Assembly (NCBI GenBank): GCA_041649575.1 | Contig: JBAZMW010000002.1 | Span: 148,487-212,486, forward strand | Source: Patescibacteria group bacterium | GTDB taxonomy: Bacteria > Patescibacteriota > Patescibacteriia > 2-01-FULL-39-33 | DNA: 64,000 nucleotides | Direction: 5' to 3' | Part shown: in pieces, positions 8,154-46,157 of the stretch | Numbering within the stretch: position 1 is the first letter of the stretch | How the letters are laid out: the number at the start of each line of letters is the position of its first letter | Position numbers and translations under genes: made by a program | The notes under the pieces: generated by a model | Told to the model about the DNA's origin: nothing | What the model saw: the letters and a program-made list of their open reading frames with translations, nothing else | Databases searched by the model: none

Positions 8154-8182
8154 TTGACATAATTTTGAAAGCATAATAAGAT
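8154..8182 (+). promoter_or_regulatory. Promoter: TTGACA, 17-nt spacer, TAAGAT(AAT)
   Basis: TTGACA at 8154-8159 and TAAGAT at 8177-8182. Same -10 string as the promoter at 9196. Confidence 0.55.
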
Positions 8183-8284
8183 AATATATCTTTCTCCAGA
8201 GAGAATGATTCATAGTCCACTTGTGGTGGAAGATGATTGCACAAAAGACAAGGGAACAGGAACCCAAGAAGGAGGCTGTACGTC

Positions 8285-9106
8285 ATGATTAAAAGAACCG
8301 TCGTGGGGCGACTTTTCCGTGATTCTGGCGCATTCGGCCAGTTGACGCCGCCGCCCGGTCTGGAGGGAACCATTGGTGATCCCGATTGGGATTTCTTCTC
8401 GAAGCTGCCGCCGCGTTTTGATTTTCTGGAACTCTGCGATCGGGTCGGCCACGCTTTTGAGATGTCCGAGTCACCCATCTCGCCCTCCGACTGGGAGGAC
8501 CAGTTCGAAAGTCAGAAGGAGCGGCTGCTCGCTCTGTCCGGCTGCTCTGATGGCCATGGCATCGTGCTTTTGCCCGGCCTATTGCCAGTGGCTCCCGGTG
8601 ATTGTATCAGGAAGAGCCTTTTCAATGTCTACATCCCGGCGGTAGAACGCGGCTACGGGGCGATCTATCCCAAGAGGGCTTTTGAGGATTGGTGTGATGG
8701 TCGGGCGGACAGTGTCGCGGCTTTTCCCGGAGTGGGCCACGAGCATCTAATCCACCTCGCCAGTAAAGGCTTGGTCGCCGTCTTCGTCTACATCGCCCAT
8801 TGTATGCGGGCGTGGCCCGTCTCGACCCAGCGCCGACTGCCACGGAAGTTGTTCAAATCGAATTTCTCCTTGGCCGGCGGCTGTGACACGCTTTCCGTCC
8901 TGTCTCTGCACCCTGATATTCTCGCCGCTGGTTTCTGTAGCCCGACGATCGAGCTCAGTGCCTTGCAGACAGATTCGCCGCGCCTCTCGATCTGCGTGGT
9001 GCCAGAAGACAAACGCCTCAGACTCGACATCTGGGGTAATCCCGACGATTTCGCGCCTGAAGCTTCAGGAGGGCTTTCGTTCTGGAAGGAGCAACCTGTC
9101 TTCTAG
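8285..9106 (+). CDS. GC-rich orphan protein, 273 aa, no recognised domain
   Basis: ATG at 8285 has AAGGAGG 9 nt upstream. The long open frame is in GC-rich DNA where other frames are also open, so the frame choice rests on the SD and on length. Confidence 0.6.
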   Translation: MIKRTVVGRLFRDSGAFGQLTPPPGLEGTIGDPDWDFFSKLPPRFDFLELCDRVGHAFEMSESPISPSDWEDQFESQKERLLALSGCSDGHGIVLLPGLLPVAPGDCIRKSLFNVYIPAVERGYGAIYPKRAFEDWCDGRADSVAAFPGVGHEHLIHLASKGLVAVFVYIAHCMRAWPVSTQRRLPRKLFKSNFSLAGGCDTLSVLSLHPDILAAGFCSPTIELSALQTDSPRLSICVVPEDKRLRLDIWGNPDDFAPEASGGLSFWKEQPVF

Positions 9107-9195
9107 CTGGCGCGCCTTAGCCGGCTGCCGGAGTTCTCTAATTGGGGCTAGTGATCATACCAATCACCGGCCTCTGTTTTTTGTTTTAAGCGTAG

Positions 9196-9224
9196 TTGAC
9201 ATTGATAATGAAAACCCTTAAGAT
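9196..9224 (+). promoter_or_regulatory. Promoter: TTGACA, 17-nt spacer, TAAGAT(AAT)
   Basis: TTGACA at 9196-9201 and TAAGAT at 9219-9224. Confidence 0.55.
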
Positions 9225-9277
9225 AATCTTTCGATCTTTCAAGTTAAACTAGTAAGGCAACCATGGAGGGAGCTGCC

Positions 9278-10015
9278 ATGTTTCTGGTATTATTTTCCAT
9301 TCTGGTCTACCCAGTGGCCTTTGTCACCTTCGTCGTTTGCGCCTCAATCTACCTGGCGTTTGTCTTTGTCTTCAAGTCGCTGGGCTGGGAGCTGCAGTAC
9401 CTGGGGCCGTTGGTTCGGTTTCTGGCTCGCGTGATTCTCTTGAGTTGTGGCCAATGGCTCAAGGTTGGGGGCAACTGGCCCTCTCCGACTATCGGGCCTT
9501 GCATCTTTCTCTTCAACCACAGCTCTATCCTGGATGCTCTGGTGGCTGGCGCGGTGCTAAAAGGACGGTTCACTGGCGTGGCTGCCCAGGAGTATTTCTT
9601 TTGGCCGCTGTGGGGAACCATTATGCGCTGGCACAATATCATTCCCATCAAGCGCAAGTGCCACGACGAGGCCATAGAGAGCATGCGGCGGGCGGAAGAG
9701 GCGATAAAAAACGGCTGGTCAATAGGCGGCTTTCCCGAGGGCACCAGAAGCAAGACAGGAGAGTTGCAGCCGTTCAAAAAGGGCCTTTTCTATGTGGCCA
9801 AGGCCACGGGCGCGCCGATCGTGGTGATAGCCATCAAGGGGGCGTACCGTGCCAAGAGTCGCGTCGGTTGGTGTGTTCGGCCGGGAGTGATAACGGCCAC
9901 TATCGGCAAACCCTGGACCCTGTGGTCTAACGGAAAGCAACGGTATGCGGCCTTGTCGGTGGAAGAGTTAAGGCAACTGGCCGAAGGGCTCATGGCAACC
10001 ATGCTCGAAAGTTGA
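9278..10015 (+). CDS. plsC: 1-acyl-sn-glycerol-3-phosphate acyltransferase-like (PlsC/LPLAT family), GC-rich
   Basis: NHSSILD (H-x4-D) and FPEGTRS motifs. ATG at 9278 is preceded by GGAGGGAG; an alternative in-frame ATG is at 9263. Confidence 0.8.
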   Translation: MFLVLFSILVYPVAFVTFVVCASIYLAFVFVFKSLGWELQYLGPLVRFLARVILLSCGQWLKVGGNWPSPTIGPCIFLFNHSSILDALVAGAVLKGRFTGVAAQEYFFWPLWGTIMRWHNIIPIKRKCHDEAIESMRRAEEAIKNGWSIGGFPEGTRSKTGELQPFKKGLFYVAKATGAPIVVIAIKGAYRAKSRVGWCVRPGVITATIGKPWTLWSNGKQRYAALSVEELRQLAEGLMATMLES

Positions 10016-10045
10016 GCGTCAGGCGGTTCCCGCTAGCGTAAGTAT

Positions 10046-10075
10046 CCGGCAACAGCGATGTTTGCCGGTTTTTCT
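10046..10075 (+). terminator. Intrinsic terminator
   Basis: CCGGCAA / TTGCCGG stem followed by TTTTTCTTT. Confidence 0.7.
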
Positions 10076-10079
10076 TTAC

Positions 10080-10123: not shown

Positions 10124-11941
10124 ATGACCGCCAAAGAACTCAAACAAAAATATTTAGAATTTTTTGAGCGCCACGGCCACCAGATTATTCCTGGCGCCTC
10201 ACTGATTCCGGAGAACGACCCGACGGTTTTATTTACCACGGCCGGCATGCATCCGCTCGTGCCTTATCTGCTTGGCGAAAAGCATCCCGCCGGCACACGC
10301 CTGGCCGATGTCCAAAAATGCATCAGGACCGGCGACATCGACAGCGTGGGCGACGACTGGCATCTGACTTTTTTTGAAATGCTGGGCAATTGGTCGCTGG
10401 GCGACCCCAAGGATCCCAAAGGGATCGGGGCAGGTTATTTCAAAAAAGAAGCCATTGAGATGAGTTTTGAATTTTTAACCAAAGAGTTAAATATACCTTT
10501 GGAAAAATTGGCGGTTTCTTGCTTCGCCGGCGATGATGATGCGCCAAAAGACGAAGAATCGGCGAGTGCTTGGCGTTCGCTGGGGATCAGTGACAAACGG
10601 ATTGCTTTTTTGAGTAAGGAAGATAATTGGTGGCCGGCCGGTGGCAAAATGCCCGGTCCTCAAGGCCCGGACACGGAGATGTTTTATTGGAACTCGGATG
10701 AGTCGGCGCCGGAAGATTTCGACCCACAGGACAAGCGCTGGGTGGAAATCTGGAATGATGTTTTTATGCAATATAACAAGGCCGCCGACGGCAGCTACCA
10801 GCCGCTGGTGCAACAAAATGTCGATACCGGCATGGGATTGGAGCGTACCGTTGCTATCTTAAACGGCAAAAAAAGCGTCTACGAAATCGAGCCGCTCTTA
10901 ACCGTTTGTTCGCAAGTAACGGCTTTATTCGAGAGCACCCTGGAAGAACTGGAAGCCGAACAAACCAAAGCCGTCAGAATCATTGCCGATCATTTGCGCG
11001 CCGCCGTCTTTATTTTGGCCGAGAGCGTGGCGCCCTCCAACGTTGAACGTGGCTATGTCCTGCGCCGGCTGATTCGGCGCGCTATTCGCTATGGCAAGCA
11101 ACTGGGCATCAAAGACGCTTTCACTGCCAAAGTGGCCGAAGTGGTCATCGCGCAAATGGGCGGATTTTATAAGGAACTAAGAGAACAGCGAGATTTCATT
11201 ATCGATGAATTAAACAACGAAGAAGAAAAGTTTAGCGCTACTTTAGAAAACGGCTTAAAAAAGTTTGAAAAATTAAAAATTGACGAGCAAAAAAAGATCA
11301 GCGGCCAAGATGCTTTTATTCTTTTTTCCACTTATGGTTTCCCTTTGGAGATTACCAAAGACTTGGCCACCGAGCGCGGTTGGCAAGTTGACGAAGAAAA
11401 TTTTAATCTAGAATTTGCCAAGCATCAGGACATTTCCCGAAAAGGCGCCGAGCAAAAATTCAAGGGCGGTTTGGCCGATAATAGCGAAGTGACGGCCAAG
11501 ATGCATACCGCCACGCATTTGATGTTGGCGGCTTTGCGCCGGGTGTTGGGCGATCACGTTTACCAAAAAGGTGCCAACATCACCAGCGAGCGCATTCGCT
11601 TTGATTTTTCCCATGGCGAAAAAATGACAGCAGAACAAATCAAGCAAGTGGAAGACTTGGTCAATGAACAAATTAATAAAAAGATTCCCGTGGTCTGCGA
11701 AGAAATGACGCTAGAAGAAGCCAAGGAGAGGGGAGCGATGGGAGTTTTTAAAAATAAATACGGCGAGCGGGTTAAGGTTTATACCGTCGGCGATCCCTCG
11801 GCAGGATCGGGACAGGTTTTTTCCAAAGAGATTTGCGGCGGTCCGCATGCCGCCAACACCGGTGATCTGGGCCACTTCAAAATCCAAAAAGAAGAATCCA
11901 GCTCCGCCGGAGTCAGAAGAATTAAGGCGGTTCTGGAGTGA
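10124..11941 (+). CDS. alaS: Alanine--tRNA ligase, short form ending after the editing domain (no C-Ala domain)
   Basis: FTTAGMHPLVPY, editing-site HTATHL and CGGPH. 605 aa, versus about 870 aa in typical bacteria. Confidence 0.9.
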   Translation: MTAKELKQKYLEFFERHGHQIIPGASLIPENDPTVLFTTAGMHPLVPYLLGEKHPAGTRLADVQKCIRTGDIDSVGDDWHLTFFEMLGNWSLGDPKDPKGIGAGYFKKEAIEMSFEFLTKELNIPLEKLAVSCFAGDDDAPKDEESASAWRSLGISDKRIAFLSKEDNWWPAGGKMPGPQGPDTEMFYWNSDESAPEDFDPQDKRWVEIWNDVFMQYNKAADGSYQPLVQQNVDTGMGLERTVAILNGKKSVYEIEPLLTVCSQVTALFESTLEELEAEQTKAVRIIADHLRAAVFILAESVAPSNVERGYVLRRLIRRAIRYGKQLGIKDAFTAKVAEVVIAQMGGFYKELREQRDFIIDELNNEEEKFSATLENGLKKFEKLKIDEQKKISGQDAFILFSTYGFPLEITKDLATERGWQVDEENFNLEFAKHQDISRKGAEQKFKGGLADNSEVTAKMHTATHLMLAALRRVLGDHVYQKGANITSERIRFDFSHGEKMTAEQIKQVEDLVNEQINKKIPVVCEEMTLEEAKERGAMGVFKNKYGERVKVYTVGDPSAGSGQVFSKEICGGPHAANTGDLGHFKIQKEESSSAGVRRIKAVLE

Positions 11942-12018
11942 GTTTTTGGTATAATATAGAGTTCTATAAAATAAAACATTTATTTGGAAAGGCAGTGTTG
12001 CCTTTTTGTTTTCATTTC

Positions 12019-12174
12019 TGCGAGCGCATGAAAATTTAGCAACAAAACAGGCGGAGTTCGAGCGTAAATTTTAATTTGTTTGAGCAAAAGCCACCAGTAA
12101 ACTGGTGGCTTTTGCGAGTTATTAAAATTAGCGAGAACAACCCTGTTTTGTCTAAATTTTCATTTAGCTCGCGC
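12019..12174. repeat. Long imperfect palindrome, copy L1 (~156 nt, MITE-like or structured RNA)
   Basis: Arms GCGAGCGCATGAAAATTTAGCAACAAAACAGG... and ...CCTGTTTTGTCTAAATTTTCATTTAGCTCGCGC, centred on CCACCAGTAAACTGGTGG (12091-12108). Confidence 0.75.
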
Positions 12175-12185
12175 TTTTTTCTTTT

Positions 12186-12226
12186 GTGTCAGCTTTTCTT
12201 TTTACTAAAAAAAGAAAAGCTGACAC
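12186..12226. repeat. A/T-rich perfect hairpin H1 (GTGTCAGCTTTTCTTTTT...AAAAAGAAAAGCTGACAC)
   Basis: Perfect inverted repeat. Related left arms occur at 22159 and 24649. Confidence 0.7.
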
Positions 12227-12252
12227 AAAAAAAGAGTATATTTAATAAACTA

Positions 12253-12281
12253 TTGACAGAATTCTAATTATATGCTATTAT
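12253..12281 (+). promoter_or_regulatory. Promoter: TTGACA, 17-nt spacer, TATTAT
   Basis: TTGACA at 12253-12258 and TATTAT at 12276-12281, upstream of the GC-rich two-gene unit. Confidence 0.55.
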
Positions 12282-12357
12282 AATAAGAAGTACCTTTTAC
12301 CACTGTGAGCTGGCCGACTTAGTCGGAAAACTAAGAACGAAGAAGGAGAAACACATC

Positions 12358-12714
12358 ATGAGTCAAAAGACTGGCATACTATTGCTGCTGTTGCGGCCGA
12401 AAGACGGAGCGGCCGTCTTCTTGGACTGGACCCAGAACGCCCTCTTCATGCTGGAGAGCGCGAGTGCCACAGGCGTTTCGCCGTTGGCCGAGAGGGAAGA
12501 TCTGGCCAAGTGTATGAAGGGTTACGAGCTGTGTCCCGCGCTTGGCTACGGCCTATGCGCCAGGTGCCCTATGTCAGTCACCGGCGGTGCTCTCTGTAAT
12601 TTCTGGGCTTCCCAGGGATTCGCCCGCGTGCTCGACGCGCGCACAGAAGAGGAGGCGACCTTTGCCGATCTCGATGCCATGCGCGCCGCGCTCACCGCTT
12701 CCATTACCGGCTGA
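12358..12714 (+). CDS. GC-rich orphan protein, 118 aa
   Basis: AAGGAG SD 9 nt upstream of the ATG. Contains CARCP and other Cys residues. No recognised domain. Confidence 0.55.
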   Translation: MSQKTGILLLLLRPKDGAAVFLDWTQNALFMLESASATGVSPLAEREDLAKCMKGYELCPALGYGLCARCPMSVTGGALCNFWASQGFARVLDARTEEEATFADLDAMRAALTASITG

Positions 12715-12729
12715 AAGGAGAACACGGAC

Positions 12730-13107
12730 ATGCCAACGGTACAAGTGGCCGCGATAAATCTGCCGGCTGGCGCCTTCCTTTTCTTCTATCCGGAACACGC
12801 CACCCCCCAGTACCTTCTGTACAAGAATATCTGGCTGGGACAGACGATGTTCAGGCAGAAGCTAAACGAAGACGAACTTCAGGCTCTCCTCGCCGCCGGT
12901 CGAAATGGGTGGGAGGAAGTGGGCGAGGTGACTCGACGAGAGTTGCAGGCCGCGGATCTCTCTGGACTGGTTCGCAATCTCAAGACCAGGTGCGTCTGGC
13001 CCGAGAATGCGACCGCGTCAATCGCTGTCAGTCCTGACTGCAGCGGACGATGCTCGGAGTGTCGCGGGTGCTATAGCGACATGGAGCCAGTCACAGTAGA
13101 GCGATAG
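12730..13107 (+). CDS. GC-rich orphan protein, 125 aa, with a C-terminal Cys cluster
   Basis: AAGGAG SD 9 nt upstream. C-terminal CSGRCSECRGC (C-x3-C-x2-C-x2-C). Confidence 0.55.
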   Translation: MPTVQVAAINLPAGAFLFFYPEHATPQYLLYKNIWLGQTMFRQKLNEDELQALLAAGRNGWEEVGEVTRRELQAADLSGLVRNLKTRCVWPENATASIAVSPDCSGRCSECRGCYSDMEPVTVER

Positions 13108-13129
13108 TCACACTGTGGTTCGTATCCGG

Positions 13130-13170
13130 GGGTTGTTGGTCGAGAAAGACCGGCAACCCTCTTTTTTTTT
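13130..13170 (+). terminator. Intrinsic terminator
   Basis: GGGTTGTTGGTC / GACCGGCAACCC stem followed by a T-run (about 10 T). Confidence 0.8.
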
Positions 13171-14241: not shown

Positions 14242-14712
14242 ATGACCGAAGAAACAAATCCAATCGAAGAAGCTGCTAAGAGCGCTCCTGTGGCCGAAAA
14301 AGAAAGCGCGGCTGCTGGCAAAAAAGTTATCAAGCCCAGAGCCAAAAAAACCGTCGCTTATCGCCAGGTGAGCTCCGGCCGTGTTTATGTTAAGGCCAGC
14401 TACAACAATACCATGGTGACTTTTACCGATCAGAACGGCAATGTCTTGTCCTGGTCTTCGGCGGGCCAATGCGGCTTTAAGGGTCCCAAAAAAGCTACGC
14501 CCTATGCCGCCACCATTATCGTCAAAAATTGTTTTGAAAAGGTCAAAAATTACGGTTTGAAAGAAGTGGCAGTCTTTGTTAAAGGCATTGGCGGCGGCCG
14601 GGAAGCGGCCATTCGCGCCTTAAATGCCAACGGTTTGATTGTCACCGGCATTAAGGATGTCACTCCCATTCCTCACAACGGTTGCCGTCCCAAGAAACCG
14701 CGGCGCGTCTAA
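14242..14712 (+). CDS. rpsK: 30S ribosomal protein S11 with an N-terminal extension
   Basis: VYVKASYNNTMVTFTDQNGN and PHNGCRPKKPRRV. Confidence 0.93.
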   Translation: MTEETNPIEEAAKSAPVAEKESAAAGKKVIKPRAKKTVAYRQVSSGRVYVKASYNNTMVTFTDQNGNVLSWSSAGQCGFKGPKKATPYAATIIVKNCFEKVKNYGLKEVAVFVKGIGGGREAAIRALNANGLIVTGIKDVTPIPHNGCRPKKPRRV

Positions 14713-15330: not shown

Positions 15331-15388
15331 AAAGTTATTTTAAAAATATTAAAATATAAATTAATTAGCTTAAGGAGGAATAAAAATT

Positions 15389-16628: not shown

Positions 16629-16985
16629 ATGAAAAAAATAGAAAGAAAAATTCATTCACTAGATGCCAGCGGCCGGCCGCTGGGCCGATTGGCCAGTCAG
16701 GTGGCGATGATTTTGATGGGCAAAAATCGGCCCGATTATCAGCCCCAATTGGATAACGGCGATATAGTAGAAGTTGTTAATTGCGATAAAATCAAGCTGA
16801 CCGGTAAAAAGCTGGAGCAGAAGGAATATATCTGGCATTCTCATCATCCGGGCGGCTTAAAACGCAAGAAAGTCAAATTGGTTTTGGCGGCAGATCCGGG
16901 AGAAGTCTTGCGCCGGGCGGTAGTCGGCATGTTGCCCAAAAACCGGTTGCAACGGCCGCGGCTTAAACGCCTGAAAATAAAATAA
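16629..16985 (+). CDS. rplM: 50S ribosomal protein L13 (short, 118 aa)
   Basis: DASGRPLGRLASQVAMILMGK and GMLPKNRL. Confidence 0.9.
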   Translation: MKKIERKIHSLDASGRPLGRLASQVAMILMGKNRPDYQPQLDNGDIVEVVNCDKIKLTGKKLEQKEYIWHSHHPGGLKRKKVKLVLAADPGEVLRRAVVGMLPKNRLQRPRLKRLKIK

Positions 16986-16992
16986 TTTTATT

Positions 16993-34968: not shown

Positions 34969-34979
34969 AATAAAAACTA

Positions 34980-36451: not shown

Positions 36452-36500
36452 GGAAAGAAGATTATTTTAATCTTATTCTACAAGAATTATATAACAATTC

Positions 36501-36529
36501 TTGACAAAAATCAATCTCAAAGCTATTAT
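36501..36529 (+). promoter_or_regulatory. Promoter: TTGACA, 17-nt spacer, TATTAT
   Basis: TTGACA at 36501-36506 and TATTAT at 36524-36529. Confidence 0.55.
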
Positions 36530-36584
36530 TTTTATTAAGTTGTCCTTTGGCTTTTGGTGAAGTTTCAACAACGGAGGGAGAAAC

Positions 36585-36848: not shown

Positions 36849-36888
36849 GCCGCGGGAGGTTTCCGAGATTCCCAACGTCAAAGGTTTC

Positions 36889-36928
36889 AAGGCTTGGACC
36901 GAGCGCGGTTCAAGCCTTTTCTGTCTTT
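36889..36928 (+). terminator. Hairpin terminator overlapping the gltX 3' end
   Basis: AAGGCTTGGACC / GGTTCAAGCCTT stem followed by TTTTCTGTCTTT. Confidence 0.55.
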
Positions 36929-38418: not shown

Positions 38419-38421
38419 AAA

Positions 38422-39291
38422 TTATTTTTTCTTTACCACCAGCCACCCAAATTTAATGGTGGCATTATAAATCCTACTTAACCGGCGCGGTTCTTGGATT
38501 AGCCGATATAGCCATTCTAACCCCAATCGCCTCAAAAATAAAGGCGCGCGTCTCACCTGTCCCGACAAAAAATCAAAAGTCCCGCCGACGCCAATCGCCA
38601 CTTTAATTTTTGGCACTTTGGCTAAGTTGTCTCTGATCCACTTCTCCTGCCTCACTTGCGGCAAGGCCACCAACAGAATATTGGCTTCGCTGGCATTAAT
38701 TTTTTCCAGCACCTGATTGTTGTTTTCAAATTGCCAACATTTGTTTTCTATGGGATCCCCACGGCCGGCTTCGCCGGCCTCGGGATGACATTGTAGAAGC
38801 GGCCCGCCTTGGTCAAAGCCAGCCACTTTGCCAATATATTTTTCTGCCACTTGTTTTGCCGCTCCTTCTTTTCCGCCCAGTAAATAAATTTTATAAATGT
38901 CATTGCGAGGGAGCGCGAGCGACCGTCCGCCTAGGCTCGGCGAGACTGGTGGCAATCCCGTGGGATCACCGCGTTGCCCGGTCATTTGACCGGGCTCCTC
39001 GGGATGACAACTTAGAAGTGCCTCTATTAGATCCACGCCCGTCACTCTCTCTAATTTTTCTTGTTTTAAAAATTTAGCCGCCCAAACCAGCCCAGCGCCA
39101 TCGCAGGTGGCCAAATCAGCATTATTTAAAATATTTCTGAAAACTTCGTCTTTTTGCGCCGCCACCACAAATTCCGGATTAATCGTCACCACCTGCCTTT
39201 GGCCTTCCGCTGTCAGCCATTTTTTAATTAACTTCAAGGCTTCTGGCAAATTGACCTGATCGATTTTTATTCCCAGTATTTCTATTTTCAT
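38422..39291 (-). CDS. WecB/TagA/CpsF-family glycosyltransferase carrying three in-frame repeat insertions
   Basis: VTINPEFVVAAQKD and DLATCDGAGLVWAAKF. 289 aa, versus about 240-250 aa that I recall as typical for the family. Confidence 0.85.
   Translation of the reverse strand: MKIEILGIKIDQVNLPEALKLIKKWLTAEGQRQVVTINPEFVVAAQKDEVFRNILNNADLATCDGAGLVWAAKFLKQEKLERVTGVDLIEALLSCHPEEPGQMTGQRGDPTGLPPVSPSLGGRSLALPRNDIYKIYLLGGKEGAAKQVAEKYIGKVAGFDQGGPLLQCHPEAGEAGRGDPIENKCWQFENNNQVLEKINASEANILLVALPQVRQEKWIRDNLAKVPKIKVAIGVGGTFDFLSGQVRRAPLFLRRLGLEWLYRLIQEPRRLSRIYNATIKFGWLVVKKK
38751..38799 (-). repeat. GC-rich CHPE-type element, copy a, in frame in the wecG-like gene
   Basis: Sense strand reads CTTCTACAATGTCATCCCGAGGCCGGCGAAGCCGGCCGTGGGGATCCCA and encodes LLQCHPEAGEAGRGDP. 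Confidence 0.7.
38898..38958 (-). repeat. Second copy of the ~60-nt pheT element, in frame in the wecG-like gene
   Basis: The reverse complement matches 25978-26037 except for a 1-nt indel plus a substitution near the 3' end. Encodes GLPPVSPSLGGRSLALPRND. Confidence 0.85.
38961..39017 (-). repeat. GC-rich CHPE-type element, copy b
   Basis: Sense strand reads CTTCTAAGTTGTCATCCCGAGGAGCCCGGTCAAATGACCGGGCAACGCGGTGATCCCA. Termini match copy a; the central hairpin has a different sequence. Confidence 0.7.
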
Positions 39292-39294
39292 AAG

Positions 39295-39984
39295 CTACTT
39301 TTTTAGATAATTCACGATGATTTTGGCCTGGCTCTGGTTTTCTTTGTCGTCCTTAAAAGACATCAGGCCAAAAATGTCGCCTTTCCAAAAGCCCAAATTA
39401 ATTTCATAATCTGCCAGATTTTCCTTAAACTCAAAGCCGCTTTCCTTCAGCTTGTTTTTGTAGTAGCCGGCCACCTCTTCTTTCGGCTGGCTTATCTGTT
39501 TCCAGGACAAAGAGGTTGTTTCCATTTTTTTCAGTTCCGGCGAGCTTAGGGCTTTTTTTAATTCCTCCGGCGTAAAACCGCGCGACAAGTCTATTTTATC
39601 GGCAAAACTTTGGCTTAATTTAGCTTTCAAATCATTGGATAAATAAGCCAAAGTCGGCTTAAGCAGCCAGTTTGGTAAAAGGCCCATGATTTTCAAAAGT
39701 TTTTCCTTGCCTTCTGGCGTCTGCAGTTCAATCTCGGCTTTTTCCGGCAGATAAATGGCCAGTTCTTCCGGGAAATCACCCGGCAACTGGTTGACTTTTT
39801 CCACCACCGGAGAGACCGCCAATCTGACAGCGGCAAAAAGAGTAATGAAGATAATTACCAACGCCAAAATTAAACAACCGAAAAATTTGATAAATTCTCG
39901 GCTTCTATTTTTTTCCGGATTGTTCAGGTTGAGTTCCTGCCAATTTTTCATTATTTCCTGGCTAATTTTATTATATTCTAGCAA
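39295..39984 (-). CDS. Membrane-anchored hypothetical protein
   Basis: One TM helix (FGCLILALVIIFITLFAAV). No recognised domain. Confidence 0.65.
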   Translation of the reverse strand: MLEYNKISQEIMKNWQELNLNNPEKNRSREFIKFFGCLILALVIIFITLFAAVRLAVSPVVEKVNQLPGDFPEELAIYLPEKAEIELQTPEGKEKLLKIMGLLPNWLLKPTLAYLSNDLKAKLSQSFADKIDLSRGFTPEELKKALSSPELKKMETTSLSWKQISQPKEEVAGYYKNKLKESGFEFKENLADYEINLGFWKGDIFGLMSFKDDKENQSQAKIIVNYLKK

Positions 39985-40026
39985 ATACCAGCCTTTTTTG
40001 CAAAAGTAAATCAGTCTTGTTATAAT
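39975..40026. promoter_or_regulatory. Divergent promoter pair sharing one palindromic -35 hexamer TTGCAA
   Basis: TTGCAA at 39998-40003. Plus strand: 17 nt to TATAAT (40021-40026). Minus strand: 17 nt to TAGAAT (reverse complement of 39975-39980). Confidence 0.5.
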
Positions 40027-40030
40027 AAAA

Positions 40031-40240
40031 GTGGTTCATTTCCTCGAGACCCGAACTGGTCATTTGGGTCTCACCGCTCCGGTGGGGAAGCGAAACCAGC
40101 GCCTTCGCTTCCCCTCTGGCTTAACCAAAGCACCTTGGTAGCACTTCCCGGGTCTACTGAAAGCCGCATCCAGGCAAGCATTAGACCCGTTCCCGCTGTG
40201 GCGGCCGATGGCATCAGTCATCAGCCGTCCTTTTTGTTTA
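40031..40240 (+). ncRNA. Candidate GC-rich structured RNA R1 (~210 nt, class unknown)
   Basis: Has its own promoter and terminator (40200-40240). Perfect stems at 40046-52/40066-72, 40084-94/40104-14 and 40150-56/40182-88. I found no SD-preceded ORF. Confidence 0.45.
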
Positions 40241-40289
40241 TCCACAGTTAAATATTTATAACCAAAGAAATCTTTGCTATAATAAAATC

Positions 40290-40622
40290 ACATTGGACAT
40301 GGGGCTTGTCAAATGGCCCTGCAACCAGTCCGAACGGAGAACGAGCCATGAGAACAAAGACAACGAAGCGAGCAGCAGTGGGCGTGATGGTCGATGGCAC
40401 CGGCGGAACAGCGTACTTGGCGACGTCCTGACCTAACGAGAACGGTCGGACTGGGCGTCAAAGAAGTTCTCCGAGACGCTTGACTCAACCCAAGCGTCTC
40501 GCCGCACCTTAACTCTCCTCGGAGAGTTGTGACTATAGGTTTTCACGCTTTGACAAAGCGTGGACATCCCCCTAAGGTGAGCAGTCGGTTGCTGACAGGT
40601 AGCCGACTCTCTTTTTGTTTTT
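40290..40622 (+). ncRNA. Candidate GC-rich structured RNA R2 (~330 nt, class unknown)
   Basis: Promoter TTTATA, 17-nt spacer, TATAAT (40255-40283). 9-bp long-range helix 40325-33/40446-54. Hairpins at 40473-40500, 40511-28 and 40544-62. Terminator at 40583-40622. Confidence 0.45.
40348..40431 (+). CDS. Possible 27-aa mini-ORF inside R2
   Basis: MRTKTTKRAAVGVMVDGTGGTAYLATS with GGAG 8 nt upstream. It is enclosed by the long-range helix. Coding status is uncertain. Confidence 0.2.
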   Translation: MRTKTTKRAAVGVMVDGTGGTAYLATS

Positions 40623-40767
40623 AAAAAATTTAGTTATCCACAGGTACTATTTATTTCTTTAAAAAATAGTTATATAATGAAAGTGCGGAAGGTATTTACG
40701 ATAGCGTACAACCGAAGCAGGCCATCGGCCAAACGATCGGCCAAACGAAAGAAAGGTGGGACGGAAG

Positions 40768-41259
40768 ATGAGAAAGTTCGTGTTTTGTACGGTAGTACTG
40801 GCGTTCGCGTTTGTGATGATTCCGGCGACGAATACTCCGGCATACGCGACGCAACTCGATCAAGGCAAGGCAGTGGCGACGGCTCCGACGACGATGGGGA
40901 CGACGCAGCAGGACGTGCAGACGGCGATGAAGAGCAACCTGGTCCTCGACGGCACCGGGCAGAAAGTCGCTGAAGTGATGAAGGCGCCGACTCTTGACTC
41001 CGGACGAGTGATTGCGCAGACGGCGACGACGAAGACGGCACGCGAAGAGCAGACGAAGATCACGGCGAAGAGTGACACGGTTGTAACGGCGAAGATCGAA
41101 GCGCAAGGCATGGGCGAGCAGATGGCAGCGGCTGGCGAAGATGACGCTGGCACGATCATCGTGGCGACGAAGAGTGACACCTATGCGACGAGAATCGAGG
41201 GCCGTATCGCTCACGACGCGGACGCGACCTTCAATGCGAACGTTCTGATCATCGGCTAA
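40768..41259 (+). CDS. GC-rich secreted Thr/Ala-rich protein, 163 aa
   Basis: AAGGTGGG SD. Signal peptide MRKFVFCTVVLAFAFVMIPATNTPAYA. Internal repeat CGAAGAGTGACAC at about 41069 and 41168. Confidence 0.6.
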   Translation: MRKFVFCTVVLAFAFVMIPATNTPAYATQLDQGKAVATAPTTMGTTQQDVQTAMKSNLVLDGTGQKVAEVMKAPTLDSGRVIAQTATTKTAREEQTKITAKSDTVVTAKIEAQGMGEQMAAAGEDDAGTIIVATKSDTYATRIEGRIAHDADATFNANVLIIG

Positions 41260-41349
41260 CCACGCGGGCAGCGCCGAAAGTCAGAACGAGTAGTACCTTG
41301 GATACACAACCGATACCGGCCAACAGTCGGATCGGCCACCTCCAGAGTT

Positions 41350-41388
41350 GGGTCAGCTGGCAACGGCGACCCTCTCTTTTTTTGTTTT
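41350..41388 (+). terminator. Intrinsic terminator
   Basis: GGGTC.GC / GC.GACCC stem followed by TCTCTTTTTTTGTTTT. Confidence 0.65.
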
Positions 41389-41396
41389 GAAAAAAT

Positions 41397-41425
41397 TTGC
41401 CAAAATTTTATAAATTTTTTATACT
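41397..41425 (+). promoter_or_regulatory. Promoter: TTGCCA, 17-nt spacer, TATACT
   Basis: TTGCCA at 41397-41402 and TATACT at 41420-41425. Confidence 0.5.
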
Positions 41426-41431
41426 ATAAGC

Positions 41432-41756
41432 AAGCGGTTCCTGCTGTGGGAACCGTGCACATTGGGTCAACGGGTCAACCGGAGGGTACAAGCAATATGA
41501 AAAAGGAAATGAGAGCGCAGGGTTTGGTCGTGGCGAAATGGAAGTAGGCTAGACCGTAGCAAGGCAACTTAGCGTTGTTGGGCGGAGGCCCCAACTAACA
41601 GTGGGCCTCCGCTGAATCTTTCCCTCGCTTGAGCGGGGTGCTGGTATATCCTTCTCTGAAGGGGTTCCCCCGTTGGGAAGTGTTGCCCATTCAACGCCTC
41701 CTGACCGCACAGGCTGCAATTTGTCGCAAGACGAAGGGCAGCCTGAATTATTTTTT
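41432..41756 (+). ncRNA. Candidate GC-rich structured RNA R3 (~320 nt) with a possible 16-aa mini-ORF at 41497-41547
   Basis: Hairpins at 41435-55 and 41582-41612 (10 bp). Terminator CAGGCTGC / GCAGCCTG followed by T6. Mini-ORF MKKEMRAQGLVVAKWK has GGAGGG 10 nt upstream. Confidence 0.4.
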
Positions 41757-41781
41757 GCTATACTTAATTTATACTGAATTT

Positions 41782-42657
41782 ATGAGAGCAGCCAAATTTT
41801 ACAAAAAATCAGGGGCTAATGTTAAATGTCAGCTTTGTCGGCATTTTTGTCTGATTGCCCCAGCCAAGTTCGGCCTCTGCGGCATGAGGAAGAATATCGA
41901 CGGCCGGCTTTATTCTCTTAATTACGGTAAAATCATTGCCAGCCAGATTGACCCGATCGAAAAAAAACCGCTCTATCATTTTTTGCCAGGCAGTTTTGCT
42001 TATTCTTTGGCTTGCCCCGGCTGTAATTTTAAATGCCTTAATTGCCAAAATTCCGATCTTTCCCAAATCACCCCGGCTTTACAAAAGGCCGTTGATTCTT
42101 TGCCGGAAACCAGGCCGGAAGAGATTGTCGAGGCGGCCTGGGAAAACAATTGCCCGTCAATCGCTTATACCTATACCGAGCCCACCATTTTTGCCGAGTT
42201 TGCTCTCGACTGCATGGAGCTGGCCAGAGACAGTAATCTAAAAAATATCTGGGTTTCCAATGGCTATCTGTCGCCCGGTTGTCTGGAGGCCATCAGCCCC
42301 TATCTTGACGCCATTAATATTGATTTGAAATTTTTTAGCGATAAAAATTATCAAAAAATTTGCGGCGCTCGCCTAAAACCAGTCTTGGATAATCTGGTTG
42401 CTTTTAAAACAGCCAAAATTCATTTGGAAATCACCACTTTAATCATTCCCTCACTTAATGATAGCGATGAAGAGTTAACCGCTCTGGCAGAGTTTATTTA
42501 TCAAAAATTGGGCGACGACACGCCCTGGCATCTGGGCGCCTTTCACCCCGCTTACAAATTAAAAAATTTACCGGCTACGCCGACAGAAACCATCAAGCGG
42601 GCCCAGGCAATCGGGAAAAATATCGGCCTGAAATATGTTTATCCGGGAAATGTTTGA
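41782..42657 (+). CDS. AmmeMemoRadiSam-system-type radical SAM enzyme (PFL-activase-like)
   Basis: KCQLCRHFC...GLCGMRKN...DPIEKKPLYHFLPGS...GCNFKCLNCQN. ATG at 41782; the track's TTG at 41629 would run through the upstream terminator. Confidence 0.8.
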   Translation: MRAAKFYKKSGANVKCQLCRHFCLIAPAKFGLCGMRKNIDGRLYSLNYGKIIASQIDPIEKKPLYHFLPGSFAYSLACPGCNFKCLNCQNSDLSQITPALQKAVDSLPETRPEEIVEAAWENNCPSIAYTYTEPTIFAEFALDCMELARDSNLKNIWVSNGYLSPGCLEAISPYLDAINIDLKFFSDKNYQKICGARLKPVLDNLVAFKTAKIHLEITTLIIPSLNDSDEELTALAEFIYQKLGDDTPWHLGAFHPAYKLKNLPATPTETIKRAQAIGKNIGLKYVYPGNV

Positions 42658-42753
42658 CTCTAATTTAAACCGGATTGTTTTTTTGGCTGTCTTAACGCCT
42701 GAATTTTTGTTATAATGATTTATGGTGCATGAAAGATTAGTAAACAAAATTAA

Positions 42754-44109
42754 ATGAGAAAAAACTACCAATTAGCGGTATTATTTTGTTTTTTGCTTTT
42801 TTTGCTTTTACCCTTTACGGTTGGGGCGGCCGATTTCGATCCCGATTATCTGATTTCTGATACCGAATTGGCCAATCACAATTCTTTGGACCTGTCTGAT
42901 ATTCAAAGATTTTTGGACAAAAGAAATGGCACGCTCAAGGGTTATGTCACCCTTGATAAAGAAGGCAACCTAAAAACCGCCGTCCAGGCTTTTTTCGAGG
43001 TGGCGCAGAAGTGGCTGATCAACCCCAAATATTTGTTGGTGTTGGTACAAAAAGAGCAAAGCTTACTCGAAGATACCAATCCCTCCCAGGGCCAATATGA
43101 CCGCGCTACCGGTTATGGTTGTCCCGATACCGGCGGTTGCGACGACCGCTGGAAGGGCTTCTATCGCCAGGTAAATTCCGCCGCGGCTCAAACCCGCTAT
43201 TATCTGGACAATATTAATGAGTTTACTTATCAGCCGGGAAAGGCCTATAATATTGACGGGCAGTCTGTCACTCCCAAAAACACCGCCACCGCCGGTTTGT
43301 ACAATTATACCCCCCATCTTCACGGCAATCAGAATTTCTGGAACCTTTGGAACCAGTATTTTGGCAAAAAATGGCCTAATGGCGCCCTGTTGCAAGCCGA
43401 AGGCGACGCTAGCAAGGTTTATTTGATTGAAAACGAAGAAAAACGCGAAATTATATCCAAAGCGGTTTTTGCCTCCCGCTTCGACAGTAAAAAAATAATC
43501 ACTGTCGGCCAGGAAGATCTGGATTCTTATGACTCTGGCGTGCCCATAAAATACCTCAATTTTTCCCTGCTTAAAAGCAGCCGCGGCGACATTTACATGA
43601 TCGTTGACGACCAAAAAAGAAAAATTGCCAGTCAGGAAGTTTTCAAAAAAATCGGTTTTATGGAAGATGAGGTGATTCCGGCGGATGACAGCGAGCTGGG
43701 CCTTTATAAAGACGGTCCCGAGATTACCAGCTATACCCTTTATCCCGCCGGGACGCTTTTGCAAGACAGCCAGACTAAACAAATTTTTTATGTCATCAGC
43801 GGCAAGAAGCGGCCAATAATCAATAAAGAAATCCTGGCTTTTAATTTTAACGGCTTGCCGGTCAAAAAAGTTTCTCCCGTCGAACTGGAATCGTACCGCT
43901 CTGGCAATCCCGTCACCTTGCCCGATGGTGAACTGGTCAAAATCAAGGGAGCCAATACGGTTTACGTGATTTCCAATGGCAAACGTCTGCCGATTTTCAA
44001 CGCCAAGATTTTCGAAAAAATGAATTATAAATGGACTAACGTCAAAACCGTTTCCAAAGAGACCCTGGAAGTTCATGAGCTGGGTCAAACCATCACCGGC
44101 GATTGGTAA
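42754..44109 (+). CDS. Secreted protein with a lysozyme/PG-hydrolase-like N-terminal region and four C-terminal repeat modules
   Basis: Signal peptide, then LVQKEQSLLED...ATGYGCPD. Four modules of the form hhYhIxxxxKRxIxxxxhF. Confidence 0.6.
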   Translation: MRKNYQLAVLFCFLLFLLLPFTVGAADFDPDYLISDTELANHNSLDLSDIQRFLDKRNGTLKGYVTLDKEGNLKTAVQAFFEVAQKWLINPKYLLVLVQKEQSLLEDTNPSQGQYDRATGYGCPDTGGCDDRWKGFYRQVNSAAAQTRYYLDNINEFTYQPGKAYNIDGQSVTPKNTATAGLYNYTPHLHGNQNFWNLWNQYFGKKWPNGALLQAEGDASKVYLIENEEKREIISKAVFASRFDSKKIITVGQEDLDSYDSGVPIKYLNFSLLKSSRGDIYMIVDDQKRKIASQEVFKKIGFMEDEVIPADDSELGLYKDGPEITSYTLYPAGTLLQDSQTKQIFYVISGKKRPIINKEILAFNFNGLPVKKVSPVELESYRSGNPVTLPDGELVKIKGANTVYVISNGKRLPIFNAKIFEKMNYKWTNVKTVSKETLEVHELGQTITGDW

Positions 44110-44138
44110 AGATTGCTATCTAAATTAATCAAAAACAT

Positions 44139-44930
44139 ATGTCTCTAGTTTTCGCGGCCATTGTGCCGCATCCGCCAATTCTCATACCCACCATTGGCAA
44201 AGAAAATTTGGAAAAGATACAAAAAACCCAAAAAGCCATGGAGCGTTTGGAGCAAGACCTTTATGCTTCCAAACCAGACATTCTAATCATAATTTCCCCT
44301 CATGGCGAAGTTCAGCATGATTTTTTTACCATCAACTTGTCTAATCAGTACCAAATTAGTTTTAACGACTTCGGCGATTTTGCCACCAAATTAGAAACCG
44401 GTGGCGACACTATCCTTATCTCGGTCAATAAAGAAAAAATCAACAGCCGCTCCCCTATCAATATTATTTCCGAGCCTAACTTGGACCACGGAATTGGCGT
44501 CCCTTTTTATTATTTGGGCCAACACCTCAAGGAAACCAAGCTGATCCCGATTTATTTTTCTTTGCTGGATAATTTGGCTCATTTGGAATTCGGCAAAAAT
44601 CTGAAAGAGGCCATTATGGGCACCGAAAAAAGAGTGGCCGTGGTGGCTTCCGGCGATTTGTCGCACTGCCTGACCGAAAACGCGCCAGCGCCTTTTAGTC
44701 CGGCTGGCAAAGAATTTGATGAAAAATTAATCGCTTTGCTCAAAAATGGCGATACCCAGGGGGTGATTAATCTGGAACCAAAATTCATCGAAAGCGCCGC
44801 CGAATGCGGCCTGCGTTCGATTTTAATTCTTTTGGGAGTTTTGAATAACATTAGCTTTCAATCGGAAATCTTGAGTTATGAGGCGCCTTTCGGCGTCGGC
44901 TACCTGGTGGCGAATTTCAAATTGGAATAA
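44139..44930 (+). CDS. Class III extradiol dioxygenase-like (LigB/MEMO superfamily) protein
   Basis: AAIVPHPPILIP, ISPHG, DHGIGVPFYYL and ASGDLSH. Confidence 0.65.
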   Translation: MSLVFAAIVPHPPILIPTIGKENLEKIQKTQKAMERLEQDLYASKPDILIIISPHGEVQHDFFTINLSNQYQISFNDFGDFATKLETGGDTILISVNKEKINSRSPINIISEPNLDHGIGVPFYYLGQHLKETKLIPIYFSLLDNLAHLEFGKNLKEAIMGTEKRVAVVASGDLSHCLTENAPAPFSPAGKEFDEKLIALLKNGDTQGVINLEPKFIESAAECGLRSILILLGVLNNISFQSEILSYEAPFGVGYLVANFKLE

Positions 44931-44968
44931 AGATTAATTTTTTAAAACCGCCCTCGTTGGCGGTTTTT

Positions 44969-45229
44969 TTATTTGTCTGCCAGTACTTTAAAAAAATATT
45001 TCCACCTCTCTTTTTGCGCCAGTTCCTTGGTCTCGTTTAAGGCTCTCTCTATTATAATCTGGTTATTTTCTTTGCAAACCTTAAAAACAGAATTCCGCTT
45101 AAAAGCCGGCACGCCCAGCTCCTTGATTATTTTTAGAGCCAGTTCTTGCCATTGGTAAGCGGGCGGCTTTTTTGACTGCCGATTGGTAAAAATATCACTT
45201 AATGATTGAAGTCCTTTATTGTCTTTCAT
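44969..45229 (-). CDS. Hypothetical small protein, 86 aa
   Basis: ATG at 45229 (MKDNKG...). The longer TTG-initiated version in the track is less likely. Confidence 0.45.
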   Translation of the reverse strand: MKDNKGLQSLSDIFTNRQSKKPPAYQWQELALKIIKELGVPAFKRNSVFKVCKENNQIIIERALNETKELAQKERWKYFFKVLADK

Positions 45230-45317
45230 ACCTAAGGAATTGTAATGGGATTTCTTTAAAAAGTTAAGAGGTGCGAAAATCAAGTAATATTTTGCACCTC
45301 GTTTTTATTTAAAAAAA

Positions 45318-45347
45318 TTGACAAAACTTAGTATAAATTAATATAAT
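45318..45347 (+). promoter_or_regulatory. def promoter: TTGACA, 17/18-nt spacer, TATAAT
   Basis: TTGACA at 45318-45323 and TATAAT at 45342-45347. Confidence 0.55.
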
Positions 45348-45368
45348 ATAAAAAACTTAAATAAATTC

Positions 45369-45827
45369 ATGCTTCAAATACTAACCAATCCCAATCCAAT
45401 TTTGCGCCAAAAATCAGTCTTGGTCGCCGATTTTACTAATGAAGAAGTCCAGAAACTGGTGCCGGAAATGGCCGAGACTATGCTCAAAAAAGACGGGCTC
45501 GGTCTGGCCGCGCCACAAATTGGTAAAAATATCAGATTGATAGTAGTGAGCCATAAGGATGGTGTTTTGGCTCTGTTTAACCCAAAAATTATTAAAAAAT
45601 CTTGGTTTAAAGAATGGGGCGAAGAGGGTTGTTTGTCTCTGCCGGATAAATACGGCGAAGTCAAACGTCATAAGAATATAACTGTAAAATTCGATGATAC
45701 CACAGGCAAATCAGAATGTTTGGAAGCCAAGGGTTTATTGGCCAGAGTAATTCAGCATGAAATCGACCACTTGGACGGAGTTTTGTTTATTGATAAAGCT
45801 AGAAAAATCGTAAATATCGACAAATAA
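45369..45827 (+). CDS. def: Peptide deformylase
   Basis: GLGLAAPQIG, EGCLSLP and QHEIDHLDG. Confidence 0.93.
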   Translation: MLQILTNPNPILRQKSVLVADFTNEEVQKLVPEMAETMLKKDGLGLAAPQIGKNIRLIVVSHKDGVLALFNPKIIKKSWFKEWGEEGCLSLPDKYGEVKRHKNITVKFDDTTGKSECLEAKGLLARVIQHEIDHLDGVLFIDKARKIVNIDK

Positions 45828-45892
45828 AACACGAAGAACGGGCACCGGTTGGCACCCGTTCGGTTCCACAGAACAAACTCACGTCGCCTTGA

Positions 45893-46093
45893 TCACGCTG
45901 GCTCCAGCAGTCTGAAGCATATCATCATGCCGATGAAGCAACAGGCCGCCACAACCATTAAGCGCTCGATTCTCCTTTCCCAACCATGCCTCATGTTTTC
46001 ATAGACGAGTGGGATCGCAAAGCCGGAGAATAAGCCAATTAGGCCAAGAACCACCATGACCACTAGCAATGCACCGTGATATGCGGTAAACAT
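45893..46093 (-). CDS. GC-rich small two-TM membrane protein, 66 aa
   Basis: ATG at 46093 with AGGAGGG 8 nt upstream (the track's TTG at 46099 is too close to the SD). Hairpin and T-run on the minus strand at about 45845-45880. Confidence 0.55.
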   Translation of the reverse strand: MFTAYHGALLVVMVVLGLIGLFSGFAIPLVYENMRHGWERRIERLMVVAACCFIGMMICFRLLEPA

Positions 46094-46157
46094 GTCCAAG
46101 ACCCTCCTGTGTCTGTTGAAATTGTGCTTGTCAAAAACATACCATTAAAATTTACAA

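Follow-up and report, generated by a model that had tools for sequence, protein, structure and literature searches.

In a 64,000-nucleotide stretch of contig JBAZMW010000002.1 (assembly GCA_041649575.1), here called the window, about ten short, G+C-rich and separately delimited genes or small RNAs are interspersed among housekeeping genes. The host is a groundwater Patescibacterium with a tiny genome, and the window, from a metagenome-assembled genome (MAG), has an overall G+C content (GC) of 43.7%. An earlier note on this DNA had listed about 12 self-contained units. Of these, 10 or 11 stand as compact promoter-to-terminator units, numbered here in the order of that list, while the gene at 35030-35158 (ORF G) is no islet and unit 11 may be the leader of a radical-SAM gene. 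The observation is real and statistically strong, the collection is mixed, and it is best filed under accessory-islet or moron biology in a little-studied phylum. The reading that we tentatively favor, and to which we give a little less than an even chance, is that the units are moron-like accessory cassettes in intergenic hotspots, with a cargo that turns over by recombination mostly within the phylum.

The composition of the units was compared with that of the rest of the window. As delimited, the 12 units have 48.3-56.1% GC against 42.6% for the remaining window, with units 4, 11, and 12 at merely 48-51%. They are thus clearly richer in GC than the core genes, as had been noted, but the range of 55-62% given for them fits only the bodies of the open reading frames (ORFs): the GC of the 11 islet ORFs is 0.50-0.61 and that of the 55 core ORFs 0.29-0.50, two disjoint ranges (Mann-Whitney p=1e-7). 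The islet ORFs are the richer in GC at each of the three codon positions (GC2 0.485 vs. 0.339, GC3 0.65 vs. 0.48 in core genes), and their untranslated regions (UTRs) have a GC of 0.44-0.61, the sole exception being a 17-nucleotide (nt) 3' UTR at 0.35, compared with 0.304 for the intergenic DNA of the core. At 0-8 kb and 47-64 kb, where the earlier note had likewise seen no units, no GC-rich segment exceeds about 250 bp.

The units prefer the codons TTC (0.68), TAC, CAC, ATC, AAG (0.68), GAG, CTG/CTC, GCG, and ACG, whereas the ribosomal-protein genes of the host amplify the core preferences (TTT 0.83, TAT 0.82, AAA 0.62, GAA, TTG, GCC, ACC, and also CAT). Since the codon choice of the units is opposite to that of the ribosomal-protein genes, it does not reflect adaptation to host expression, and codon adaptation or high expression was ruled out as the source of the high GC3. 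Selection on RNA structure was likewise ruled out for the coding units, as the coding parts of the islets fold about as their dinucleotide shuffles do (mean z -0.12, vs. -0.27 for core genes). In composition and codon usage, the units are foreign-like.

Promoters and terminators were called by consensus scans. Promoter-like sites occur at about twice their frequency in shuffled sequence, and the best sigma-70-type matches (10-12 of 12 positions) lie at unit starts, namely at 8154, 9196, 12253, 20711, 33049 (minus strand), 36501, 39998, 40255, 41397, and 46164 (minus). The strongest and longest terminator hairpins were found at unit ends (13128-13161, 32433-32399 on the minus strand, 36889-36918, 40583-40608, and 45861-45836 on the minus strand), in agreement with the predicted placement of promoters at the starts and intrinsic terminators at the ends of the units. 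Similar promoters precede the core genes alaS, infA, and def, and alaS ends with the same kind of stem and a TTTTTGTTTT tail; the signals of the units are therefore of the host type.

A Shine-Dalgarno (SD) sequence, defined as GGAG or GAGG within -20 to -4 of the start, precedes 9 of the 11 islet ORFs but only 3 of the 55 core ORFs (Fisher p=3e-7), in agreement with the earlier impression of strong SDs on unit ORFs and none on core genes. The context GGAG(A)AAC, which had been proposed as common to the units, is not enriched in the window (8 matches vs. 5.4 expected, and 4 vs. 1.9 expected). An anti-SD motif is undetectable in about half of the 16S genes of Parcubacteria (PMC9297842). Among the very few core genes of the window with a strong SD is rpoA (15365-15388; TTAAGGAGG, 9-10 nt, ATG); this SD is kept in the relative L003 (~14285-14308) and not in L011, L053, and L064. 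This conservation is a hint of a functional anti-SD in the sub-lineage.

To compare the junctions that hold the units, relatives were found via alaS, via a homologue of ORF G (L081), and via gltX in metagenomes (L093, L094). The relatives are well syntenic, with core proteins 45-78% identical, and four syntenic relatives lack the units. The spacing between def and fmt is 330 bp in the window vs. 16-17 bp in L081 and L093, and that between serS and the next gene is 663 bp vs. 23 bp in L094. Likewise, mnmA and alaS are 2,078 bp apart in the window vs. 370 bp in L001, and alaS and infA 1,437 bp vs. 194-204 bp in L011 and L064, where unit 3 is absent. A gene for a 229-amino acid (aa) protein and the radical-SAM gene are separated by 1,797 bp vs. 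284 bp in L081, and the M23 peptidase gene and gltX by 458 bp vs. 166 bp in L081 and 276 and 54 bp in other relatives (54 bp in L094). The separation of def from fmt and the units at mnmA/alaS, alaS/infA, and serS/next gene are thus as first described, and most units are absent from the orthologous junctions or replaced by unrelated units. Judged by these junctions, most units appear to be specific to this lineage and to have been added between core genes that are neighbors or near neighbors in relatives.

The relatives have SD-led or GC-rich mini units of their own at the same kinds of junction, most with a visible promoter and terminator. In L003, they lie at 11800-12240 (alaS/infA) and 16770-17200 (region past rpsI), in L001 at 11780-12380 (past alaS), in L081 at 15430-15890 (beside serS), and in L093 at 7975-8320 and 15730-16130, comprising two small RNAs beside the 229-aa gene and one unit beside serS. 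Three further units are found upstream of alaS at 8760-9960 of L011, with ORFs of 19, 14, and 37 aa. In this Komeilibacteria MAG of 33% GC, the 19- and 14-aa ORFs stand behind perfect AAGGAGGT SDs and each has a terminator, and the third unit combines a leader of about 500 nt at 51% GC with the 37-aa ORF, reminiscent of unit 4. Neither in DNA nor in protein did the relatives' units resemble one another or the units of the window.

At some junctions, the window and L093 have promoters in common. The promoter of unit 8 aligns with L093 (z=3.9), its body being unrelated, and the DnaA box and promoter of unit 9 align in the same box-to-promoter layout (z=7.4). The promoter core of unit 7, TTGACAAAAATCAA, aligns as well (z=5.4), the slot in L093 holding an SD-led ORF of 15 aa. 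For unit 5, the alignment covers the -10 region (z=3.3), and the context of SD and start codon, GAGGAAAnAT(n)ATGCT, is alike by eye only; L081 and L093 have unrelated ORFs of 103 and 91 aa in this slot, in the same orientation. All these promoter matches are short, and the signal of units 7 and 5 may partly belong to the divergent neighboring gene. The transcribed bodies in the promoter-sharing slots score at chance between the window and L093. Taken at face value, the alignments argue that the promoters at two or three junctions are resident and that their cargo has been replaced or has wholly diverged.

Unit 1 (8154-9190, plus strand) consists of a promoter TTGACA-17-TAAGAT (8154-8182), a leader of about 95 nt, the SD AAGGAGG, ORF A (8285-9106, plus; 273 aa, GC 0.58, GC3 0.67), and a terminator-like hairpin with a T-run. 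All ORFs other than a PlsC-like acyltransferase had been regarded as orphans, and this view fails for ORF A, for which an exhaustive HMMER search returned 136 homologues and a word-indexed search none. Named members of this family come from Parcubacteria, Magasanikbacteria, and Buchananbacteria. ORF A has no Pfam match and no match among PDB sequences. Its AlphaFold2 (AF2) model reaches a predicted local distance difference test (pLDDT) score of 90.6, compared with 33 for single-sequence AF2.

A homologous locus, L174 (4830-9059, JGI Ga0394675_032559), contains what by its sequence is a complete, textbook diversity-generating retroelement (DGR). It lies between secF and a sigma-factor gene, which are adjacent in the window (876/1024) and interrupted by the DGR in L174. 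The element comprises two family-A target genes with 97%-identical promoters, the variable repeats VR1 (5775-5898) and VR2 (6998-7121), a template repeat (TR, 7498-7621), bAvd, and a reverse transcriptase (RT) gene of the RVT_1 family. The last 124 nt of the targets match the intergenic template repeat, and 13 of 14 and 18 of 19 differences fall at template adenines. Residues 18-268 of ORF A align with a DGR target of L174 (29% identity, E=6e-23), and ORF A belongs to a family found across Patescibacteria, among whose members are genuine DGR variable proteins. No template repeat of the 3' end of ORF A was detected within the window, none of the 40 window ORFs scanned against Pfam matches RVT_1, and no RT is present in the window. 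Since the template repeat, Avd, and RT are all missing there, this copy may be a non-diversified or remotely served homologue of DGR proteins. The genomic context of family A differs in each of nine loci; most inspected copies are SD-led, and those detailed have their own promoter, leader, and terminator.

Unit 2 (9196-10075, plus) follows directly, with a promoter TTGACA-17-TAAGAT, the SD GGAGGGAG, ORF B (9278-10015, plus; 245 aa, GC 0.57, GC3 0.70), and a terminator CCGGCAA...TTGCCGG with a T-run. ORF B is a lysophospholipid/PlsC-type acyltransferase that carries the acyltransferase domain PF01553 (E=2.7e-28, 98.8 bits vs. a cut-off of 23) and matches TIGR00530 of NCBIfam with a score under the cut-off. 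Its nearest homologues (49% identity) are encoded on contigs of about 44% GC and are of ordinary composition. Unit 3 (12253-13170, plus) has a promoter TTGACA-17-TATTAT, two SD-led ORFs, C (12358-12714, plus; 118 aa) and D (12730-13107, plus; 125 aa, with a Cys-rich C-terminus), and a 14-bp terminator at 13128-13161; its junction from C-D to infA was joined independently in a Logan contig.

Unit 4 (20710-21520, plus) starts with a perfect promoter (12/12), followed by a many-hairpin leader of about 570 nt (20747-21314), the SD GAGGAGGG, and the putative ORF E (21315-21503, plus; 62 aa, CxxC...CxxC). The leader is structured (z=-9.9 as a whole, z=-1.5 to -3.7 in windows), and the whole unit has 48% GC. 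Since ORF E itself folds at z=-5.1, its coding status is uncertain. Rfam matches in the region 20550-21800 are all sub-threshold and lie outside the unit. Next to it, at 21540-21730 (plus), we observed an additional self-contained unit that was absent from the earlier list, in which an RNA of about 125 nt that folds very stably (z=-7.0) lies between a promoter and a terminator (21691-21717); it is not GC-rich, and its sole Rfam match is sub-threshold (rnk_pseudo, 29.9 bits vs. a cut-off of 55). Unit 5 (32399-33049, minus) has a 12/12 promoter (33049-33020), the SD GAGGAGCGAGGA, ORF F (32453-32950, minus; 165 aa), and a 15-bp terminator (32433-32399).

ORF G (35030-35158, minus) encodes a 42-aa protein with about 12 cysteines (MDKCAKCEMPIDEETRCSCEPEVCFHCCSCGAGCGCGCKEKE) and lies 3' of the M23 peptidase gene. 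It is found at the matching position in L081 (10001-10129), L093 (~13579), and L094 (~5420) and is GC-rich in all four genomes; in L081, a relative of 37% GC, the homologue has a GC of 0.56 and a GC3 of 0.60. ORF G lacks both a promoter and an SD of its own, and its position is conserved in three relatives; it is therefore ancestral and does not count as an islet. The protein could be assigned to no family.

Unit 7 (36501-36928, plus) has a promoter TTGACA-17-TATTAT, the SD GGAGGGAG, ORF H (36585-36848, plus; 87 aa, Zn-ribbon-like), and a 13-bp terminator (36889-36918). Unit 8 (39998-40240, plus) combines a promoter with a TG-extended -10 box, a structured RNA of about 208 nt without an ORF (fold z=-5.15), and a terminator. 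Unit 9 (40255-40622, plus) consists of a promoter, a possible ORF I (40348-40431, plus; 27 aa, SD GGAGAAC), a structured 3' part (z=-3.4, compared with -3.3 for the whole unit), and an 11-bp terminator (40583-40608). Unit 10 (40650-41388, plus), with a TATAAT -10 box and a weak -35 box, encodes ORF J (40768-41259, plus; 163 aa, GC 0.59, GC3 0.74), which is T/A/K-rich behind an N-terminal signal-peptide-like segment, and ends with a terminator and T-run. Unit 11 (41397-41756, plus) has a promoter, a structured RNA of about 330 nt (z=-3.4) with an SD-led ORF of 16 aa (41497-41547), and a terminator that stops 25 nt 5' of the radical-SAM gene (41782); it may be a cis-leader of the leader-peptide or attenuator type for the AmmeMemoRadiSam operon, or an independent small RNA (sRNA). 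Unit 12 (45836-46165, minus) has a promoter with a TTGACA -35 box that overlaps the start of the fmt coding sequence on the opposite strand, the SD AGGAGGG, ORF L (45893-46093, minus; 66 aa, a membrane protein), and an 11-bp terminator (45861-45836).

Perfect DnaA boxes occur three times in the window vs. 0.38 times expected. Those at 40238-40246 (TTATCCACA, plus) and 40634-40642 (plus) each lie directly 3' of a terminator and about 9 nt 5' of the -35 box of the next unit (units 9 and 10, respectively). The third (20581-20589, minus) lies within a stretch of 25% GC (20540-20700). Among the relatives, DnaA boxes were found in L093 at 8205 and in L002 at 388 and 6873. None of the boxes in the window is near dnaA.

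The core genes around the units were assigned by Pfam and synteny. They are secF, a sigma-factor-like gene, a TrwB-like ATPase gene, CarS-like and DAGK lipid genes, and mnmA; then alaS, infA, rpsM/K/D, rpoA, rplQ, rplM, rpsI, and a UvrD/PD-(D/E)XK helicase gene; then pheS, pheT, lysS, serS, a Xer-like recombinase gene, and the M23 peptidase gene; and finally gltX, WecG, the AmmeMemoRadiSam operon, def, and fmt, followed by glycosyltransferases and a Liv-type ABC transporter. The single tRNA of the window is at 62619. Genes point rightward up to about 32 kb and leftward from about 47 kb, and the cumulative GC skew reaches its maximum at 32-36 kb. The region of convergence (~32000-47000) is therefore probably the replication terminus, and the units surround it. 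An origin of replication (oriC) at 40 kb, considered in view of the DnaA boxes, was found to be unsupported.

Additional genes that are AT-rich or neutral in composition also split core pairs (30084-31110 and 23570-25345). The genes lysS and serS, direct neighbors in L081, L093, and L094, are separated in the window by two inserted ORFs of 188 aa (33% GC) and 159 aa, and pheS and pheT by an isocitrate/isopropylmalate-dehydrogenase-like gene (36% GC) and an ORF of 163 aa (29% GC). Insertions into core pairs are therefore not exclusively GC-rich.

A common element, a known protein family, and a known RNA family were sought for the units. There is no sequence similarity among the units of the window, no shared boundary motif, such as the earlier note had suggested looking for, and no direct, boundary, or flanking repeat; a single repeated mobile element was therefore ruled out. 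The orphan status that had been assigned to the ORFs agrees with the family searches for C, D, E, F, H, J, and L, which have no matches in Pfam, NCBIfam, PHROGs, or PADLOC, and F and J have none among PDB sequences. No homologue of F was found by word-indexed search, a weak result because that kind of search also missed the homologues of ORF A; for C, D, E, H, J, and L, the negative results likewise rest on non-exhaustive searches. A phage or defence origin was rejected, there being no matches in PHROGs, PADLOC, INPHARED phages, and IMG/VR. Rfam gave nothing at gathering score in the window and nothing at E<=1 in the region of units 8, 9, and 11 (39950-41800). From their folding, three or four units are predicted to be structured RNAs.

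The anatomy and composition of the units, their absence in relatives, and the reuse of slots are seen in the data; for the favored reading, we infer expression, transfer, and donors as follows. The units would be heterogeneous small cassettes, a counterpart of phage morons on the chromosome and no single system, monocistronic with one bicistronic exception, in which promoter, SD, cargo, and terminator occupy slots between core genes. Each would be transcribed alone from its sigma-70-type promoter and insulated by an intrinsic terminator. A strong SD would drive translation of the cargo and would be required because GC-rich 5' regions presumably cannot use the A/U-rich, SD-less initiation of the core genes. 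The cargo would most likely be imported, chiefly from other Patescibacteria, and swapped by recombination at the slots, where some promoters would remain resident during this turnover. Besides a homologue of DGR proteins and the PlsC acyltransferase, it would include small proteins of the Zn-ribbon or Cys-rich kind, one secreted and one small membrane protein, and three or four small RNAs with structure, of which two follow promoters with a DnaA box. In agreement with this, the individual gene transfers detected in Patescibacteria are mostly between Patescibacteria (PMC12455944).

Several points weigh against this reading. Neither a donor nor a mobility gene was identified, nor any target duplication or boundary repeat, and A, F, J, C, and D have no phage or viral match in PHROGs, INPHARED phages, and IMG/VR. 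Horizontally acquired DNA is usually richer in AT, not in GC, than its host. A promoter shared with L093 in front of an unrelated body is not what a self-promoted cassette predicts, and a PlsC gene (39% identity to ORF B) is present at the same mnmA/alaS junction in L002. Moreover, the family-A gene is richer in GC than its locus in 9 of 9 loci (the window and eight contigs from other assemblies), by +0.06 to +0.18 with a mean of +0.127, and its GC climbs with that of the host (slope 0.71, r=0.70), while the RT and Avd genes beside the family-A genes of L174 are AT-rich like their host. The GC excess of this family looks like a persistent property and not like nine recent imports; together with the excess of ORF G in L081, it is not predicted by one recent GC-rich donor. 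The class of acquired or mobile islets proposed at the outset thus stands in that the units are lineage-specific, foreign-like, and equipped with host-type promoters, but not in that they have no common sequence, boundary motif, or repeats and that the list included the ancestral ORF G and a PlsC gene with a counterpart in L002.

The slots could instead be ancestral, with an old promoter, SD, and start, and with weakly constrained bodies that evolve in place beyond recognition and are held GC-rich locally, by GC-biased gene conversion at recombination-prone loci or by selection on transcript composition. We consider this possible but doubtful. It would account for the promoters and the one DnaA box in common with L093 at 229aa/radical-SAM, serS/ftsQ, and gltX/M23, where the bodies are at chance, for the vertical conservation of ORF G, for the behavior of family A, and for the ORF B homologue in L002. 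However, several junctions are essentially empty in relatives (16-17, 23, and 54 bp), and the slots are therefore not universally ancestral. The coding regions are no more structured than shuffles, so that selection on RNA structure fails to explain their GC, and, for bacterial gene conversion with a GC bias, an excess of 0.2-0.3 in GC3 would be very large. Since family A is conserved and confidently folded, at least that cargo is not unconstrained. A bolder alternative, which we judge unlikely, is that SD-poor Patescibacteria maintain a persistent, lineage-wide second class of genes, made up of monocistronic accessory genes, DGR targets included, and small RNAs. These would sit in conserved promoter slots, be SD-translated, and lie 6-18 GC points above the chromosome regardless of the GC of the host, forming a separate channel of expression and turnover and not a product of ordinary horizontal transfer. 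Such a class might be kept up by GC-biased recombination or repair aimed at the slots, or by a specialized SD-dependent initiation.

The contrast in SD use, and the possibility that SD availability is a real variable in a group whose 16S genes often have no detectable anti-SD, could also point to a hidden, co-regulated regulon of small proteins and sRNAs, set apart by SD-dependent translation or by shared control such as DnaA. The over-represented DnaA boxes upstream of units 9 and 10, one of them conserved in L093, would fit, but an identifiable operator is common to these two units only, the promoters are ordinary consensus sigma-70 promoters like those of alaS, infA, and def, and the cargo differs among relatives, which is unexpected for a conserved regulon. 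As the GGAG(A)AAC context is not enriched and the link to SDs is explained more simply as a requirement of GC-rich 5' regions, we regard a regulon as improbable. Two further explanations are essentially excluded. A single family of mobile elements, be they integron-like cassettes, MITE-like elements, or retro-inserted transcripts, would explain why the GC-rich segment in every unit spans from just past the predicted transcription start to the terminator, and a tyrosine recombinase gene is present at 34003-34968. That gene is Xer-like, conserved, and syntenic in L081, L093, and L094, however, and the lack of similarity among the units and to those of relatives, of direct or boundary repeats, and of an RT or integron integrase in the window makes such a family very improbable. 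Even less credit is due to chimeric inserts of reads from GC-rich organisms, as might be suspected from the metagenomic source and the sharp jumps in composition at the unit borders. The inserts are framed exactly by host-type promoters and terminators, always between genes and never within them, the independent Logan assembly reproduces the C-D/infA junction, the same proteins occur in NCBI, JGI, ENA, and Logan records, and relatives from other samples have the same architecture.

The earlier statement that no described system matches was too strong, since phage morons and chromosomal hotspots of horizontal gene transfer (HGT) come close. By definition, morons have a GC unlike that of the genes around them and bring their own promoter and terminator (PMC3594210; Cumby et al., 2012). 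Like the morons of the HK97/HK022 type, the units are additional DNA separating genes that are neighbors in relatives, have a promoter and a factor-independent terminator (here by consensus scans only), differ from their neighbors in GC, and carry one or two small accessory genes. Unlike morons, they lie among chromosomal housekeeping genes (aminoacyl-tRNA synthetase and ribosomal-protein genes, def, and fmt), have no PHROG or viral matches, include non-coding RNAs as cargo, and at some junctions use a promoter that belongs to the host slot. The concept of chromosomal HGT hotspots, or genomic islets between core genes, reportedly goes back to Oliveira and colleagues in 2017. It is matched by core junctions that hold different cargo in relatives and are empty elsewhere, whereas the units are tiny (0.25-1 kb), monocistronic, consistently GC-richer than the host, and SD-led, and are without an integrase, tRNA, or repeat signature. 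The marks of classical genomic islands (>10 kb, tRNA-adjacent, an integrase, and flanking direct repeats) are likewise absent.

Unit 1 alone recalls DGR variable proteins of the C-type-lectin fold (e.g., Mtd, TvpA, and TaqVP), through the homology of ORF A to the L174 target, and differs from them in having no template repeat, Avd, or RT within the window. Integron gene cassettes resemble the units as small single-gene modules with unrelated cargo at defined sites, but are promoterless and have attC sites and an adjacent IntI integrase with a Pc promoter. The units are spread over 38 kb, have their own promoters and terminators, and show neither a shared end motif nor an attC-like repeat, the only recombinase being the conserved Xer-like one. 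Finally, GC-rich structured RNA genes in AT-rich genomes are said to have been described by Klein, Misulovin, and Eddy in 2002. Units 8, 9, and 11 and the leader of unit 4 are similar in their GC, their promoter and terminator, and their folding (z -3 to -10), but belong to no Rfam family, and the coding units are equally GC-rich without excess structure.

Patescibacteria have small genomes that are rich in unannotated small genes. If the favored reading is true, much of this "dark" accessory content would consist of promoter-to-terminator cassettes in reusable slots, and an excess of GC together with an SD would offer a simple means of finding the flexible genome of these uncultured symbionts, along with their candidate small RNAs and DGR-type binding proteins. 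The consistent GC excess opposes the rule that accessory DNA is AT-rich and could inform the debate on GC-biased gene conversion vs. selection in bacteria. The contrast in SD use between units and core genes bears on how translation starts in lineages that are often without an anti-SD.

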